Both the position numbers and the translations under genes were made by a program. Shown here in pieces: positions 19,705-49,407 of a DNA stretch of 64,000 nucleotides. The number at the start of each line of letters is the position of its first letter. Within the stretch, counting starts at the first letter, position 1. This DNA is from Podarcis pityusensis. Taxonomy: Eukaryota. The notes beneath the pieces are model-generated. The model ran no database searches. It was not told where the DNA came from and was given only the letters and a program-made list of their open reading frames with translations. The stretch lies in NCBI GenBank assembly GCA_964106645.2, contig OZ067045.1. The stretch is one strand, 5' to 3'.

Positions 19705-19970
19705 TCCCAACCCTAAGTGGAGATGCCGAGGATTGAACCTGAGACCTTTTGCATTCAGAACAAATGCTCTACCACTGAGCTACGGCCCTTTCACTTAATG
19801 TGCAGCATTGCATTAGAATAGGAACATAGAAAGCTGCCTTATACTGAGTCAGACCATTGGTCCATCTTACTCAGTATTGTCTACACTGATTGGCAGCAAC
19901 TCTCCAGGTTTTCATTCAGGCAGGTGTTTCTCTCAACCCAACCTAGAGATTGAACCTGAGACCTTCTTCA
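19705..19970 (-). mobile_element. Two adjacent Squam3-like SINE fragments
   Basis: GGATTGAACCTGAGACC occurs with CCACTGAGCTACGGCCC at ~19730-19790; a second copy begins GGAACATAGAAAGCTGCCTTATACTGAGTC at ~19821. Confidence 0.75.
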
Positions 19971-22672: not shown

Positions 22673-22815
22673 TGGGATAGTTCAGTCAATAGAGCATGAG
22701 ACTCTTAATCTCAGGGTCATGGGTTTAAGCTCCATGTTGGGCAAAAAGATTCCTGCATTGCAAGTAGTTGGACTAGATGACCCTTATAGTCCTTTCCAAC
22801 TCTTCAATTATATGA
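22673..22815 (+). mobile_element. tRNA-Lys(CTT)-derived SINE with CR1-type tail
   Basis: TAGAGCATGAGACTCTTAATCTCAGGGTCATGGGTTTAAGCTCCATGTTGGGC matches tRNA-Lys(CTT); followed by GGACTAGATGACCC...CCAACTCT CR1-like 3' end. Confidence 0.8.
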
Positions 22816-24539: not shown

Positions 24540-26446
24540 CACTGGTCAACAACAAATTTGTTGTCTGCGTTTTTTCAGTTGATTTAGGATGAATCTGATG
24601 CACTGAATCAAAAAATCACATTGGTTTTGCTCAATCAGGTCAAGTTTCTGAGCTATGGCCACATGTCGTTTTTTTACGTTTTTGTTCACATGGACGCTTG
24701 TGTGGAGCATTTTAGAAGAAGTTGGTGGGGGTAAAATGCCATGTCGAATAATTGTTTTGATTGGAAATGATTATTTTAATGACAAGAAGTATTCAGGTCC
24801 GATAGTTCTGGGTGATTATGTCGAAAAGGGAACAGTTTGAAGTCATAAAACCTCGAAATCTTCCATAAATTGGTGCACTGTTGATGTGACTGGGATCAAC
24901 AGAAAGAACCGGAGCAGCCTCAAGTATTCTGATCTTCAATCAGCACGTTGTCCTGTAGCTCATTGTGATGAAATTCCAGTGCCTATTTTCGGAGAACTTC
25001 CTGACATTAGTGACGAAGATGCCTCCAGTGTTGAAGGACATGAAGAAAAAGAAGTGGTTCTTGAAGATGATGCTCCACATCCATTTTCCCAAAAGGAGTT
25101 GAATGATCTAGTTCGCGACCTCAGCTTGTCAAAGGACTCTGCCGAACTGTTGGCATCCAGATTGAAGGGAAAAAACCTCTTTTCTGACAGTGCTCGCATC
25201 AGCTTCTTCCGCAACAGGCATCAAGAGTACCTCCGTTTTTTCTTGGAAGAGAAGGACTTGGTGTACTGTGCAGATATTGCACAGCTTCTGCTCAAGCTTG
25301 GAGTGCCACAGTACGAACGCAAAGATTGGAGACTGTTCATTAACAGCAGCAAGCGATCACTGAAATGTGTTCTGCTACACAACGGCAACCAGTTTGCCTC
25401 TATATCCCTGGCTCACTCGAGTACACCGAAGGCGAACTATGAAGCGGTGAAGTATTTGCTGGAGAAAATTGGTTATGATCAGCATAAGTGGTTTATTTGT
25501 GTTGACCTGAAGATGGTGAACTTCTTGTTGGGACAACAGTCTGGCTTCACCAAGTACCCATGTTTTCTGTGCATGTGGGATAGTAGGGACCGTGCTCAGC
25601 ACTACACGAAGAAGGACTGGCCTGTGCGGGAGGAACTGGTGCCTTGCAAAAAAAGGAACGTCATCAATGACCCTTTGGTGGACAGAGACAGAATACTCTT
25701 CCCACTGCTGCACATCAAGCTCGGCTTAATCAAGCAGTTCACCAAGGCTCTGGACAAGGATGGTTACTGCTTCACTTACTTGTGCCAGGCTTTTCCAGGA
25801 TTGACCATGGAGAAGTTGAAAGGTGGCATCTTTGACGGTCCTCAGATCCGTCAGCTCATCAGAGATCCAGAGTTCAGAAACTCAATGAACGAAGTGGAAC
25901 TGGAAGCGTGGAAGGCATTTGTTCTGGTAGTGAAGAACTTTCTTGGCAACAATAAGGCCAGAAACTATGAAGAACTTGTCAACAAGATGCTGACTGCTTT
26001 CAGAAACCTGGGCTGCAACATGAGCGTCAAGATGCATTACCTATTTTCAAAAATGGACCGGTTTCCTGAGAACCTGGGTTCAATGAGTGACGAGCAGGGG
26101 GAGAGATTCTATCAGGACATGAAAGAGATGGAGACCAGGTATCAGGGTCGCTGGGACGCAGTCATGATGGCTGACTACTGTTGGACTCTGAAGAGAGACC
26201 TCCCTGCCACTGAGCATTCCAGGAGTTCCAAGAAACGGAAGTTCAAGCCCTGAAGTTTGAAAAATGGTGAAGCAACATGCAATTTATGTGTACTTAGCTT
26301 TATCAATGCCCACCATTCAGTTTACAGTAAACCTGACCTGATGGAGAGAAACGGATGCCATTTCCTGATTCAGCAGTGCAAAAATACCCTAAATCAGTTG
26401 TAGAAATCTAGACAACATTCAAAAAGTAAAAAATTGTTGCCCAGTG
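24540..26446 (+). mobile_element. Chapaev3-type (CMC superfamily) DNA transposon, both ends intact
   Basis: Left end CACTGGTCAACAA; the right end reads CACTGGGCAACAA on the minus strand. TAA flanks both sides (24537-39, 26447-49). Degenerate inverted similarity extends ~110 bp inward. Encloses a transposase ORF. Confidence 0.93.
24874..26253 (+). pseudogene. Chapaev3 DDE transposase; frame open but N-terminally truncated and probably inactive
   Basis: 455-aa ORF 24886-26253 with motifs ELNDLVRDLSLSKDSAELLASRL, WRLFI(N)SSKRSLKCVLLHNGN, ICVDLKMVNFLLGQQSGFTKYPCFLCMWD, PLLHIKLGL, GIFDGPQIR, SDEQGERF(Y)QD, basic C-terminus SKKRKF. Starts at GTG; first ATG is codon 210; in-frame TGA upstream at 24838-40. 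Confidence 0.88.
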
Positions 26447-33365: not shown

Positions 33366-36217
33366 AATGTTTGCATCACTAGAATAACAAATCTGTTGAT
33401 ATTTGGTTGTCATATTTTTTCCTAAAATATATTATTTGGTTATTCCTTAGGTTTTCCAACAATGGTACAAGCAAGAACAAAACAAAAGAACCACATCTTG
33501 TACAACCCATTGTGGTATGGCCTCCTTTGTCATAAGGCAATAAAGCAATGTCACCACTCTCCAAAACTATTGGTGAGACTAAGTGCTACTTTGAAGTACG
33601 CTTGGTTGCAGTTTTGCCAAATTAAATAAAAAGTCTCCCACTTCCCCATATGGGAAGAAGACAAGAGCCAATGTTAAAATGTTTAGTGTTCTTTGGACAA
33701 CAGGACACTAGAAATAAGCAATGTAGTGCTGGACTGAAAATTCTCCGGGGTTTTCCTTCTTCTTTTGACCATTTACTGAAAGTTCAGTTCAGTTTGCGTT
33801 GAGAATTTATCTAATTTGTGCACTCCTAAACAATGCACAAACCCAACTGCAGCTGTTTGCTGCAATTCTCACTGTCCTGACTTTTGTGATGCATTCCTCC
33901 AACTCAAAGCTGTGCGTAATTAATGCTTGCAAAAATTATTGCTTGCCTTACCAGTAGCTTCTTGTATGCTGCTATTTCCACATCTTCTCTGAGAAGATCT
34001 TAGTCAAGTAATAAATGGGCATGTAAGAAGAAATGCACACTCAAGTGGGGACTAATCTTCAAGTGGACTATATTAAAAATCACAAACTGATGTGGAATGT
34101 GGAAGATTGGAAAAATGGGTAATGAAGAGAGGGGCAGGGAGTAGGAGAGAGAAATTAAGACTCCCCCACTTCTCCTGCTACCCCCCTGTTGTTGCTGCCC
34201 ATTGCTGTTCCTTCCTGTTCAGCTGCCTACTTTGAGCATGGAAGCAAACAGTAGCAAGAGTGAAGAGACTGAAAAGGATTTCCTGCCTACCTTGTGCTCA
34301 CTTTGCTGGGTAGTTGTAAATAGAGTGCTTGAAATGGACAGAAATGGCAAAGAGGAAGGAGAGGCTCCTGCTGGCCTCCTATCCAATCCTGAATTCACCC
34401 CTGGTGGTAAGTTAGCAATTTATGTGAAGAGCTATAAGGAGATGACTTGTTTATGTTGCAGGAAGAGTGAATACTTTAACCCTGAACAACAGTTTGTGTA
34501 CTCCAGGAGATTAATATCTACATTGCACGGGCTTGCTGTGAATAAATTAACTCTTGAATACACAATTACTGTCTTAGCGGTGTTCATTGCAGACAATTAC
34601 ATGGTGCATACGATATTTAATGTAGTTTTGTGATGAATTTCGGAAATGATAGAGTCAGATGACAGAGCCTCATTCCGTGTCACACTAGGACACCAATAAG
34701 CTGCTGATTATCTGTAAGGAGAAATGTAAATCATCTGTTCTCTTTGTAATGAGAACAATACTGGGCTAATCATTCATAAAGAATAATTTATCTCCCCATT
34801 TATTTACTTATTTAGTTCCCCTTTACTACTTTGGCCTACAGACCATTGATCATTCATCTGGTAGTTGGTTCCAAAGATGCTGAGGAGATGGGATTAAAGA
34901 TAGCACCAAGCAGGCAAGCAAGCAAGCAAAAAACCCACACCAGCAATTACAACTTTGCCATATTATTATGGTGTGTAAATATTCATTGGCAAGTCTTAGT
35001 TATATATCTATCTTTCAGGGGACAGAGTATGGAGGAGGAAAATTAACATATTGTTATCTGAGCTGAGCACTTAAAGTCGCTTTTGATCCCTGTAAATAAG
35101 TAATAAGATAAAGCAAACACCTGGACATGAATAAATATTCCCTCTCTCTCTGGGGTAGACAATCCAGTATCCTCCAGAGGTTGCTAAACTTCAGCTTACA
35201 TCAGCCCTAGTCAGCATTACCAATAGTCAGGGGATGATGGGAAACATAATGAAACAATATTTTGAGGGTGCTATGTTAGTTATCACCTATCTGCCTATCT
35301 GTCAGGAATATTTGTTTGTTTGTATTTGCTTTCTTTCACTTACTTATTTAATTACTTACTGGAGATAGTTGGCTACTGAAGGACAGTTTGTCTGAAAATA
35401 AATAAAACAAACAATACTCAGCCTACATCACTTCTGGAAGATCCAAGAGTTCAAGCTTTGGCGAGTCTCTAATGAAAGAAAGAACCTAAATTCCAAAGGT
35501 GTTTTTTAAAAAGGTTTTTAAAAAACAACCCCCCCCAAAAAACCTCCCCTTTAATCCAAATCTATTATTCTGATCATAGTCAACCCCAATGCTAAAACCA
35601 ACCCACTGTTTCCTTCTTCTAGCATGAGACTCACCATTCCCTTGCTGCTACTTCAGGAGACTTTTACGGCACAGCGCTGCATGTAAAGTTCACCGTCTTG
35701 CCATGACCTTTCCTCTTTTAAATTGTTTCATCATTGTGACCGACATGAACCAAAGGGAAGATGTAAAAATGTTAAGGAAGTTCATTTCTAAGAAGGTTAA
35801 GCAACTCTTGCAGTGCCCTTTCCACATTATCCAGGACCTCCTAGAGGCACCATAACATGATAATGATGGTTTCTTTAATTGCATTTTGTTGTCAAAGAAG
35901 GCATGTTTGAAATGGATGGCAATTAAACATTCTGCTTCTCAAGGATCATCTCTGTAGTTTCATCCAGGATCACAGAGTTCAAAGGTTCTCTGGTTTTCTG
36001 GAGTAACAATGAAAGAAAAAACAAAAAAGTCTGGCATTCAAGAAAATGCAATACTTGGTAATGTATATTATATTTATCTATATTTAAATACAGAAAAGGA
36101 ATTCATCCAATCTGATGTTTCCAAACTTCCATGTGGATCAAAACTCCCAGTTGGATTATTCACTCCTTTGGATGTTGTGATGCAGTTTTGGTGCAAAAGG
36201 TGCACCCAAACCATGTA

Positions 36218-36459
36218 CAGTGGTACCTCGGGTTACATATGCTTCAGGTTACATATGCTTCAGGTTACACACTCCGCTAACCTAGAAATAGTGCTTCAGG
36301 TTAAGAACTTTGCTTCAGGATAAGAACAGAAATCGGGCTCCGGTGGCGCGGCGGCAGCAGGAGGCCCCATTAGCTAAAGTGGTGCTTCAGGTTAAGAACA
36401 GTTTCAGGTTAAGTACGGACCTCCGGAATGAATTAAGTACTTAACCTGAGGTACCACTG
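36218..36459. mobile_element. 242-bp Tigger/pogo-like MITE (same family as 10537, opposite orientation)
   Basis: TA-CAGTGGTACCTCGG...CTGAGGTACCACTG-TA; CpGs retained. Confidence 0.9.
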
Positions 36460-38026
36460 TATTATTCATTAACCAATTTACACAAAATGTGAATTTCACA
36501 GAAAATGTGTAGTTTTCATACAGAGTGCCAACACGAACGCAAAGGTTATGCTGCCAATGTGCACAATGTGTGTACATTTTAATTGCAGACTTTTTGTGCA
36601 CACAAAATGGGACAGGATCTATGACCGAGTGCCCGTGAAGCTGAAACAGAACAGCAGTTCATCCCTATTTATATCCTGCCTCTCCATTGTCCTACTTCAG
36701 GTAGCAATAAACCACAAAAAAATTACACAGAGTAATTAGAAGAAACCAATACAAAACATAATCTTGATAATCCAGTGAAAAAATGAACAGCCGCTGACAA
36801 CTGTTCATCTTCTATCAACCGTTTTAATGAACTTAAAGAAGTTGAATTAATCATCTTAGATCAAAGAACTCAAATTAAAGACATGCAGATTTCACATGCT
36901 GCCACCAAATGCAAGTGTGGAAATAGCTCTTCCATTCAATTTCTTCCCTCCTTTAAAAGGAATAATTTATTGAAACAAATTTTGAGAAATACACTGGTAT
37001 AAGAAGCCCAAGTAATGATACATATGTTCACGTAAAGCTATACTTTTTTTTTGTTAAGCAGAGCAGACCTTGTAGATATGGACCAGTGGTGAGCATTTTG
37101 TATTTTGATCCCCAACCAATTCCCCATCTCTGAAAAGTCAGGAACAAAGCTAGTGTGTGATATCCAAAGCTTGTCCTACTCAGAGTATACCCATTGAAGT
37201 TAATAGACAATGTTTTGCTTCAGTATTCAGGAGATGGTAATATGTTCTGAACCTAGTCTGATTGGTTTTCAGTTACATTCTTGAGTCTGCGGGTTCACTT
37301 CACTCTGTGACTCACTGGCTGGTTGACGTGCAAATGTGAACCCTGATTAGAACTGCAAATTAACAATTTGGACAAATTAAGAACTTGAAAGGTGACTATG
37401 CATGAGTTCATAAGGCTTAGATGTCCTTGTACTGTTCCATTTTCAAGACTGATTTGTTTCTTCCATTTTCATTGTAAATGGAAGGATGAACATTTTAACA
37501 TGTGTACAGAGTTTATTTTCTTGTCACTGTTACCACTTTTCTAATTTAGGGCCCCTTCAAATGTCCTTTTTATTGTGCATTCAGAATTATTTGTGCTCAT
37601 GAAGGTACAGGTTTTGTAAAACATACAATCCCACTTTCAATGCTGTTTATGCCTGCAAATGTTCTGGGGCAGACATAATGCTTCATTACCAATTGGTACA
37701 TGTCACATAGTCTCCTGATGAAATCTTGCAACTTTTCATATCACATTTTTTTTAAAAAAAAATATCTTGCTTTTGTTGTGCTAAAGTGCAAGAGTGCCCT
37801 CCCAGAAAGCAATTGTGCAGCAACACTGGGGAAACACCACAGAATAACGAATAAAGCGGAATGTGGTGTGGACAGTTCCGAATATATCCACAAACAAAAC
37901 AAAACAAAACTCTCCAAGCTAGAGGGGCCCTCATTACACACAACCTGGTTTTTAAAACTTATCTGGTTTCACCTGTTTGTTGACTTAGCGAACTGATACA
38001 TTTCCACTGGCAAAGAACTATTCAAT

Positions 38027-39991: not shown

Positions 39992-40123
39992 NNNNNNNNN
40001 NNNNNNNNNNNNNNNNNNNNNNNNNNNNNNNNNNNNNNNNNNNNNNNNNNNNNNNNNNNNNNNNNNNNNNNNNNNNNNNNNNNNNNNNNNNNNNNNNNNN
40101 NNNNNNNNNNNNNNNNNNNNNNN
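39992..40123. other. Assembly gap (132 N)
   Basis: Run of N. Confidence 1.
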
Positions 40124-45245: not shown

Positions 45246-45688
45246 CACTAGTGAATGCAAAGGAGACACTCTACGGCCTGCAAAGTGTTCCTCCTCGCAC
45301 ACAACCACCAGACTGGTGTCAAGCCTCATCTACCATTGCTTCACTTTCTTCTGACTAGAGTAGTTTCCAATGTTCCTGGCACCCAGATGCTAGCTAAAGA
45401 ACACCTGCAAGGGGAGGCCAGGACAGCATTTATAGAAGGTGGTGGAAAGCCTCTCATTCCTTACCTTGGGCTGACGTCAGCTTAATTCGTTTAATTCGTT
45501 TAATTCATTTGTATCGTTTAATTGACTGAAATTAAGCCACCACTGGGCAAAACAAAGCAAAGCACAACCTTTCAGTGAGGACTGCGTGCTACCAGTTTAA
45601 TTTCTTAAATGGGACGGGGTGGGGGGTGGCATGGTGCCAAAAGCACAGGCTGCTTCTTTACAAGCACGGTCCTGTGGGGAGGGTGGAG

Positions 45689-46560: not shown

Positions 46561-47213
46561 CTATACATAAATTCTTTTTTAAATGGTGACAAGATAATAC
46601 TAGGAGATGATCGCTAACCATTTTAGTTTTGTCCAAACATGCTTGTCTTGAGTCAGGCCTAGTGTCTGACTTTGAAGCAGGGGTGGCTTGGCATGGTAAT
46701 GAGGATGGGGTCCCACTCCAACAACACCCCAAATCAGGGCAGGATCAAGCCCTCTTGTAGTGATCATGGCTGCAGCTGTCATTGCTGTGGCACTACTGCC
46801 ACATTGGTGGTGGCAGCAGTGCCACTCCTGCTCCAGTGGCAGGCAATTCTTTTGAATAGGTACTAAGATGATTTCCCATACATGGTGCCTGCCTTCCATC
46901 TTGAGTTACCCAGAATGCAATGTCCCAGCCTGTAGATGGGCAGAGGGCATCACATTACAAGCAACTTAAAATGGCTGCTGGCCAGAGTGATGGAATCTTA
47001 GCTTGACTGCCTTTCGAAAGCAACAAAGTAGTCTCTCCCAGCTCTACCTGGAGATGCCAAGCATTGGACCAGGTAAGTGGGTTTGTTGCAGAAAACTCCC
47101 AATCAACTATAATTACAGAACCTGAATTTTCCAGTATGTGATTAAATCTCATCCCCAAACAGTGACAGTCTGGAAGGGCCCTCGGCCAGAATACTGAACC
47201 TTCCAGCTCAGCA

Positions 47214-47938
47214 CAGTGGTACCTTGGTAGTAGAACATTTTGGCTTCCGAACAAATCAGCTCCTGAACGTTGCAAACCTAGAAGTGAGTATTCTGGTTTG
47301 CGAATGTTTTTCGGAAGTTGAACGTCTGACGTGGCTTTCAATTGAGTGCAGGAAGCTCCTGCAGCCAATTGAAAGCCGTGCCTTGGTTTCCAAACCGTTT
47401 CAGGAGTTGAACAGACTCCTGGAATGGACTGATGTATTTTTCCATGTATAAGACGATATTCTTTCCTTAGAAAAAATAGGCAAAAATTGCGGGTCGTCTT
47501 ATACACGGAAAGCAGAGGGGGGATGGCCGATTGGTGGCAACATCCAGCAGGAGATTGGCAGCGGCGATTGGGTGTGTGATTGGTTGCTGCGGCAAGGCCT
47601 ACTGACGATTGGCTGTGGCTGCGGCAACTGGGCGGTTGATTTACAGCAGCGGCGAAGTGAATGTGCAATCGGCTGTGGTTGCGTTGAGTGGGCAGGTGGG
47701 CTTTTGGCTGTGAGTGTGCAGACGATTGGTGGTCACGTCGATGTGTGCGATTTTTAGTTGCGGCCATGCTGTAGAGCAATTGGCGGCAGTGGACCCCCCC
47801 CTCAAAAGCTCAACAACTCTGGGCAATCTCCCCCTCAAAGTTTTTTTTGTTGCAGTCCCAAAAAATAGGGTTTGTATTATACATGGGGGGGGGGGGGTGT
47901 TATACATGGAAAGATATGTAAGAACCAAGGTACCACTG
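47214..47938. mobile_element. Tigger-like MITE carrying a nested Tc2-like element
   Basis: TIR CAGTGGTACCTTGG / CCAAGGTACCACTG; CA on both flanks. Confidence 0.8.
47433..47918. mobile_element. Tc2/pogo-like non-autonomous element with GATTGG-rich internal repeats
   Basis: Ends TGTATTTTTCCATGTATAA...TTATACATGGAAAGATATG-TA; repeated GATTGG/GCGGC units at 47529-47770. Confidence 0.65.
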
Positions 47939-49407
47939 CATTGTCAACTGAGACAGGCCTGGTAGAAGACACACTTTCACTCCCCTCCACACATGTGGGA
48001 AGATGGACTATGGGACAGGAATCACCTAACCTGGCCCTTGGTTGTTTCTGCAGCCACAGATAATCATGGTAACCTTATTTTGCCCCTCACAGAACCAGAG
48101 TTCCCAGCACCTTTAACAGACCACGGTCCCCAGAATTCTTTGGTGGAAGTGGTGGGGTGGGATAGGAGGAGATGTGCTTTAAATGTGCATTCAACATATG
48201 GTGTATATGCAGCCTAACAAAGCTTTCCACTCTGGTTTATGTAAATAGCATTTCTTTAAGAGGATCCAATAAGACTAAGTCACCTAGCAGCTCTGTTAAA
48301 GTAACCTCCCTCATAAGGTTCTAGTGAATCAGGTTTAAACACTTGGGGGGGGGGGTAGTCAGTTTCCTTTGTATTTAAAGATTGAACTGCCTACTGAGAG
48401 ATGTAACAAGCTGGCTCTTATTTGGCATTGTTTAGAGCTCCCCCCACCCCGCCCCAGTAATGCCACAGACACATATCTAGCACAATGTTCTCTTGCCATC
48501 CCCACCCATCTTGTTGCTTCAGGTGTTGCCCTGTTGCTCAGTCATTGTTAGCAGATTCTGAACAAATTTGCAACAACAGTCCAGCCTTCCAAAAGGGATT
48601 ATGATGACTAAACCAATAAACCCTTGTCGGCTTTCACGGCCTTCTAGTTTAACAAACTTTCCACGCTATATGGTTTGATGCCAATTTGCTTATATTTTGG
48701 ATTATTATAATTTTTTGGCCTGTCTGTTTGGTGATCACTTATTACTCCAAGATTATGAGATAATTACTGGTGTTTTTTTAAGGGTGGAGTATTTTTTTTA
48801 TTGTGTATGTGTGTGTGGGTAGTTGTAGAACACAGATGCGATCAGATTTTTATTTTTTTAAGGGACAAAAGGACATGAAGCAATCAAGCAGCTGTCATGA
48901 AGCAATGGTAGACATATCTTTCTTCAGCAGCGTTTGATAACTCGAGCTGTAATCTTGGCAGTGGTGATATAATTAAGGATGTTGATGACACTCCCTTTAG
49001 TCTTTTTTATGACTGCTTGTTGCTGTGAATCTACTTAAGAGCAATAGACTGTAATTAGCAATGAATCTGCTGATATGCAAATACGAGATTGAGCATGGTG
49101 ATTTTGCAAGGCTAGTCTTGTTCTTTCCTCATTTGCCTGCCTTCTACCTGGGGAAAGTTTAGAACCCAAGCAAAATGTGTTCACTAGCCTCAAAGAGGAC
49201 CATGATTTGAATCACATTTCCTTCTGCACAAGTTTCCAGGCTGCCCAAGCCAGTAGTGGGTTGGACCAGGGGCATAAGTGAGAAAAATAAACACTCCCTC
49301 ACAAAAGCAGAGCAATGAATTTATTTTAAACTGTGGGATCTTCAATATGCAGTCAATAGCTTCTGCTTCTCCATAGCCTGTTCCACAAGTGGAGCAGTTC
49401 TATATGA

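Follow-up and report, generated by a model that had tools for sequence, protein, structure and literature searches.

Does the 1,907-bp element at 24540-26446 of a 64,000-nucleotide stretch of lizard DNA (the whole of this stretch is referred to as the window) represent a young, intact transposon that recently crossed between species, or the decaying remains of one? The element is a Chapaev3 copy with intact ends and a truncated, mutated transposase, and as such it is defective. We regard it as probable that its family entered a lacertid-type lineage horizontally and that the copy has since decayed there, free of selection, for millions of years.

The element has Chapaev3 ends and a duplicated target site

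Chapaev3 elements are defined by CAC..GTG ends, a TWA target-site duplication lying between A and T, and the transposase motifs C(2)C, LH and H(4)H (PMC4079192). The element carries 5'-CAC and GTG-3' in its terminal inverted repeats and is flanked by a 3-bp TWA duplication in the arrangement A-TAA...TAA-T; TAG and TTA duplications were found in its relatives. The initial annotation had described CACTGG..CCAGTG termini and a TAA duplication, and both were recovered here: the ends are 13 bp long and complementary at 12 of 13 positions, TAA is present on both sides, and a looser inverted similarity extends across about 120 bp (Table 1). Within the window, the pattern A[T][AT]A-CACTG occurs twice and CAGTG-T[AT]AT once. 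No second copy of the element was found within the 64-kb window; an end-like match at 45541-45556 was rejected as weak and at chance level. An assembly gap of 132 N occupies 39992-40123.

Table 1. Features of the Chapaev3 element and of its transposase frame (positions refer to the window).
Feature	Position	Strand	Remark
Left target-site duplication, TAA	24537..24539	+	A just before, as in the A-TWA-T rule of PMC4079192
Left terminal inverted repeat, 13 bp, 5' CAC, CACTGGTCAACAA	24540..24552	+	
Left subterminal region	24553..24691	+	Resembles the right end imperfectly, in inverted orientation; about 80% identical to the left ends of metagenome relatives
Non-coding stretch	24692..24873	+	Mostly without match among 25 loci
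Truncated transposase frame, 459 codons and stop	24874..26253	+	Equals residues 98-556 of full-length relatives
D168N	25342..25344	+	Asn here, Asp in 108/108 relatives; first strand of predicted RNase H-like sheet
D222, retained	25504..25506	+	Likely second catalytic Asp, from the structure model
C(2)C motif, retained	25561..25572	+	From the 108-relative alignment
H(4)H motif, second His to Lys (H404K)	26035..26052	+	His in 107/108 relatives
E418 and E421, both retained	26092..26103	+	One of them likely the catalytic Glu
3' non-coding region	26254..26433	+	Near 26329, about 165-175 bp shorter than relatives with complete right end
Right terminal inverted repeat, 3' GTG, TTGTTGCCCAGTG	26434..26446	+	
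Right target-site duplication, TAA	26447..26449	+	T just after

The transposase frame is open from stop to stop over 470 codons (24841-26253), and 459 of these, from 24874 onwards, are homologous to transposase, which is close to the 455 codons without stop or frameshift first counted. The frame begins without an ATG and corresponds to the 556-aa relative P0129 only from residue 98 onwards. The first 97 codons, which encode the N-terminal cysteine-rich region of the 556-aa relatives, are gone. A Chapa zinc-finger domain has been placed in the N-terminus (PMC4411706), and the missing region, in which CxxCG is present in 86 of 108 aligned rows, is likely to be this domain. The non-coding stretch at 24692-24873 is probably the family's 5' untranslated DNA, which a deletion would have joined directly to codon 98. 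A Pfam search of the window frame returned 0 families. The description of the element as intact-ended with an open frame holds for its ends, whereas the frame is that of a truncated pseudogene and is no sign of an intact element.

Relatives and predicted fold place the frame among Chapaev3 transposases

A protein search yielded 1,772 relatives, and among the best 120, which were listed, none had a functional name. The C(2)C, LH and H(4)H motifs and the DDE core are shared by 107-108 of 108 aligned relatives, including the nearest protein, P0002, and the window frame follows the printed Garfield_BM protein (PMC4079192) motif by motif when compared by eye. Ends, TAA duplication, motifs and transposase relatives all fit the Chapaev3 identity originally proposed.

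The predicted structure of full-length P0129 (mean pLDDT 86.9, pTM 0.64) found its best fold matches in HzTransib (6pqx, E 3.7e-08) and RAG1 (E about 1e-06); the sequence identity of these solved structures to the model is 9-14%. A Transib/RAG1-like fold is expected for the Chapaev3 group (PMC4411706, PMC12730594). An Atlas search gave clusters without names and a lead to the RAG1 RNase H with a value under 0.9, and a PDB sequence search gave a single chance-level match.

As DNA relatives we collected 25 metagenome loci, the closest of which is 87.8% identical to the element over 1,448 bp. The ends of these relatives match those of the element, their left ends being about 80% identical to its own and their right ends reading CCCAGTG or CTCAGTG. 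The N-terminal coding region is absent from 6 of 9 aligned relatives (L003, L004, L006, L010, L011 and L012), in three different structures whose frames begin again near codons 83-94. The Chapa region may have been lost repeatedly in Chapaev3; search patterns taken from the retained part bias the sample toward short forms. Conan_ET (461 aa) and Chapaev3-1_AC (485 aa) fall in the same short size class as the N-terminally deleted relatives.

A few features of the relatives were observed in passing. In L001, L002 and L017 a pyrimidine-rich stretch ending in AG lies a few bases upstream of the ATG, which suggests that full-length elements have an intron in their 5' untranslated region, and in L002 (2380-2690) the right end is present twice in tandem. 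Four fish gene models named NACHT/LRR/PYD-12-like (P0182, P0332, P0333 and P0360) contain Chapaev3 transposase sequence, which would reflect mis-annotation or fusion.

The element is likely to belong to a sister family of Conan

The printed ends of Merrow, Garfield, Conan, Chapaev3-1_AC and Chapaev3-2_AC all differ from those of the window element (PMC4079192, PMC3014272). Merrow and Garfield share with it the C(2)C, LH and H(4)H motifs and a history of repeated horizontal transfer, and their transposases measure 556-562 aa. However, they are encoded in two coding exons (PMC4079192), whereas the window element's close relatives have single 556-aa frames; identity with either family was rejected on this ground and on the ends, compared by eye. 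The Anolis families Chapaev3-1_AC and Chapaev3-2_AC have a lizard host, the TWA duplication and CAC ends in common with the element, and Chapaev3-1_AC is 1,910 bp long. Their printed ends, CACTGRWAAACA and CACTAGGAAACACAATTT, nevertheless differ (for Chapaev3-1_AC, 11 and 10 of 12 bases match by eye), and their copies lie 11-12% from consensus (PMC3014272), whereas the window copy is about 2% from its nearest relative.

A Chapaev3 transfer into a lizard has already been published, with tenrec and Anolis as the Conan hosts and a Conan transfer involving the lizard (PMC4079192). The element could be a member of the Conan group in a broad sense, in which case both the family and its transfer into lizards would already be described under the names Chapaev3-1_ET and Conan_AC. 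Conan is a Chapaev3 family with a TWA duplication, a length of about 1.9 kb and a single frame of about 460 codons, and Conan_ET in particular, at 1,865 bp with one 461-aa frame, closely resembles the 1,907 bp and 459 codons found here (PMC4079192). Furthermore, one of the 25 loci, L001, contains the printed 16-nt Conan end exactly (1407-1422) and has an N-terminally complete frame; across 1,457 bp it shares 83.5% identity with the window element, which exceeds the 80% limit for a family applied in PMC4079192. Judged from this one end, L001 may be Conan-like and full-length, with a CpG-rich host, but its protein falls outside the clade of the window copy. Against membership in Conan, the window end does not match the 16-nt motif within 3 mismatches, and by eye 20 of 30 printed bases match at one end while the other diverges after 13; this comparison covers the printed ends (PMC4079192). 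Among the Conan members published, identity is 87.6-98.3% and the ends are nearly the same (PMC4079192). We therefore consider it unlikely that the element is Conan itself, and the window family is more probably a sister family to it.

Literature titles and abstract openings named no lacertid Chapaev3 family, most subscription papers and Repbase Reports lying outside this scope, and neither Podarcis nor Lacerta appears in the supplementary tables of the large vertebrate survey. The undescribed family suggested by the initial annotation is a possibility, given that the ends differ from those printed for five families.

Tree, protein identity and dS point to horizontal entry

A quick tree built from 48 selected proteins, with SH-aLRT support only, placed the window copy in a 20-row clade (SH-aLRT 100) whose sole named member is the prawn Macrobrachium nipponense, and within which most forks lack firm support. 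The Rhineura protein, the only one with a squamate name among the matches listed, grouped with Hydra, far outside this clade. The element tree is thus incongruent with the host tree, the lizard copy lying with a prawn protein and Rhineura with Hydra. The nearest named relative among the matches listed is likewise that of M. nipponense (XP_064120350.1), at 89.6% identity to the window frame (251/280), followed by Lates (87.6% of 314), Pycnogonum (87.2% of 226), Myripristis (85.7% of 238) and Pyrocoelia (78.7%), whereas Rhineura reaches 56.9% (260/457). P0002 is 94.3% identical to the prawn protein (230/244). XP_064120350.1 and P0123, P0124, P0128, P0129 and P0136 form one clade with the window frame at 89.6-92% identity.

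Codon alignments with 10 metagenome loci gave a dS of 0.33-0.37 and a dN/dS of 0.21-0.26 for the six closest, five of which represent one orthologous insertion and count once; for two other loci dS was about 0.5, and for two about 1.9. By comparison, the dS of EF-1alpha among insects alone is 0.57-3.49 or saturated (PMC4079192). CpG observed/expected ratios were 0.71-1.13 in 7 of 8 measured metagenome flanks, unlike in the lizard window, while the flank of L017 had a vertebrate-like ratio of 0.38, which counts against transfer. The orthologous insertion just mentioned comprises L004, L005, L007, L010 and L011, which are 99% alike, share the same flank and TAG duplication and have mutual dN/dS values of 0.6-1.3; it is a neutrally decaying insertion sampled from related sources.

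Alternatively, the family could have been inherited vertically from early squamates or amniotes, its likeness to invertebrate sequences being due to strong constraint. Chapaev3 families do occur in Anolis, snakes, turtles and Rhineura, and purifying selection acts on the transposases when hosts are compared (dN/dS 0.09-0.26). Constraint would, however, not account for the dS of 0.33 by which the element differs from copies on CpG-rich contigs, a value below the range quoted above for insect EF-1alpha, nor for non-coding ends that are also about 80% alike; moreover, the window copy is neutral, so constraint cannot keep it near the prawn sequence, and the protein of Rhineura, at just 57% identity, belongs to another clade. 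Vertical descent is therefore very unlikely.

Several observations limit how the transfer can be read. Chapaev3 is present in Anolis and at least six snakes (30 of 33 survey rows), and therefore squamates are not free of the group. The missing squamate names among the close matches are weak evidence, because broken transposon copies are rarely annotated as proteins. The link to the prawn is one of protein over 280 residues, and the prawn need not be the donor. The source of P0002 and the ten organisms whose sequencing runs share words with the element (see below) could all be lizards, or the donor could be among them. Viral contigs, prokaryote genomes and phage records contained no relatives and so gave no evidence of a vector. 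Taking tree, protein identities and dS together, the horizontal transfer suggested for this locus is likely, and from these sequence comparisons we hold entry of the family into the lizard lineage by this route to be highly probable.

The truncated copy has probably decayed without selection

Across 460 residues the window frame shares 91-92% identity with full-length relatives, which are 556-560 aa long. At six positions the frame differs from residues that are fixed in 107-108 of 108 aligned relatives (D168N, P189S, E198A, P289L, H404K and H424Y). D168 corresponds to D254 of the P0129 model, in strand 249-255, the first of the RNase H-like sheet, and because of this modelled position it is likely to have been the first catalytic Asp; a second invariant Asp directly follows strand 304-306 of the model. 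XP_064120350.1 and the full-length relatives keep the Chapa region and the catalytic Asp, both of which the window copy has lost. Lacking a start codon and a Chapa domain and carrying D168N and H404K, the copy is not an autonomous element, and we infer that it can no longer make a working transposase.

P0002, a protein of 424 aa from a 1,839-bp contig, differs from the window frame at 20 of 423 residues (tree branch length 0). Six of these differences fall in 123 highly conserved columns, where 5.8 are expected if changes are blind to conservation. In contrast, pairs of intact proteins showed 0/10, 0/17, 0/18 and 0/48 changes at conserved columns, although these pairs share sequences and are not independent. 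The changes are blind to conservation and therefore indicate neutral decay of about 2%. This corresponds to the published pattern in which DNA transposons are neutral within hosts and under purifying selection across transfers (PMC7070016). In a neutral simulation, about 2.2% nucleotide change was needed for 20 amino-acid differences; with that much change, 36% of runs kept the frame without stops, and 3-11%, depending on the indel rates assumed, kept it without either stops or frameshifts. P0002 begins at residue 47 and its contig measures only 1,839 bp, which suggests that it shares the truncated structure and that both would be copies of an amplified derivative.

These data also bear on the possibility of a gene that is still intact and recently active, or domesticated, or of a truncated regulatory product kept open by selection. 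With a simulated chance of 0.03-0.11, the 459 unbroken codons are a mild oddity, and N-terminally deleted forms recur among the relatives. Yet the open frame is what singled this copy out, which inflates the oddity; the frame has neither start codon nor Chapa domain, and the six substitutions at fixed residues together with the conservation-blind changes speak against an intact or domesticated gene, a reading rejected on these grounds. Selection on the frame in any of these forms is highly improbable. That foreign DNA was joined to lizard sequence in assembly, by contamination or as a chimera, is scarcely credible, since although no indexed run holds more than 0.56 of the element's words, the element sits between exact TAA duplications in CpG-poor, lizard-type flanks, 3 of 21 conserved CpGs have decayed to TG or CA, and about 2% of neutral decay has accumulated.

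The CpG observed/expected ratio is 0.453 in the element and 0.216 in the rest of the window, where only 2 of 292 tiles, which overlap, reach or exceed the element's value. The ratio in the coding sequence of relatives is itself only 0.43-0.57 (8 loci at 84-89% identity), and for this reason retention is better measured by counting conserved CpGs: the element keeps 17 of the 21 that at least 3 of 4 relatives share. The retention of CpGs against CpG-poor flanks, including both examples first quoted for it, is thereby borne out.

Sequencing runs from ten organisms and 10 studies contained 0.41-0.56 of the element's sampled 31-mers (among the runs listed, 20 of 24), equivalent to 97.2-98.2% identity. 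One further run (X21, organism K), with a share of 0.01, was left out and is no proof of absence. At a slower substitution rate of 1e-9, a change of 1.9-2.8% corresponds to 19-28 My. Placed on one branch at the published lacertid rate of 2.56e-9 per site per year (PMC12001565), the same change corresponds to 7-11 My. Both ranges are younger than the crowns of Lacertini (37.6 Ma) and Lacertidae (86.6 Ma; PMC6733905). Very roughly, decay has thus lasted about 7-28 My, and the element is young, as the initial annotation had it, only in the relative sense of about 2% decay, its age being one of millions of years.

A possible history of the copy

Our preferred reading, horizontal entry followed by unselected decay, could have unfolded as follows. 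The invader of the germ line would have been a full-length element, about 2.4-2.5 kb long, with a 556-aa DDE transposase; a deletion would then have removed its Chapa zinc-finger region. The resulting 1.9-kb derivative still had both ends, and the full-length enzyme probably mobilized it in trans, inserting it at an A-TAA-T site, where it would have accumulated about 2% of random substitutions.

More tentatively, an undescribed family circulating in crustaceans and other aquatic animals might have invaded lacertids during the past 7-28 My, in an event separate from the arrival of the families in Anolis and snakes, and spread there as a 1.9-kb derivative without the Chapa region. The ten organisms with copies 97-98% identical would then include non-lizards and mark a recent wave through many hosts, and Chapa loss might be a recurrent route to non-autonomy. 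We consider this wider scenario possible but doubtful.

If confirmed, the locus would place a date on the transfer of a little-studied transposon group into a family of lizards missing from the tables of the vertebrate survey, and the natural full-length relatives at 91-92% identity could be used for Chapaev3 biochemistry. Other transposon transfers into lacertids have already been published (PMC12001565), and the overall picture is unchanged by what would be a new case of a known process.

Other repeats in the window

Of 166 window frames of 75 or more aa, 150 were scanned and contained no convincing host gene; 4 weak matches lay below the cut-off. A CpG-richer composite repeat at 47250-47950 overlaps a 284-codon minus-strand frame (46955-47809) without Pfam match. 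On the minus strand, 59077-59805 holds a 243-codon open 3' part of an L1-like ORF2 with 12 matches, of which the named ones are all from Podarcis (best 83% and 91%). The lizard host first proposed is supported by this fragment, and a lizard of lacertid type is likely. Three tRNA-like matches, at 9116-9173, 19718-19789 and 22678-22735, are likely to be heads of SINEs, and one of them presumably resembles Squam3. Finally, two 246-bp copies in opposite orientation (10535-10780 and 36216-36461), 91% alike and with a 16-bp internal repeat, look like a non-autonomous DNA transposon with TA flanks.
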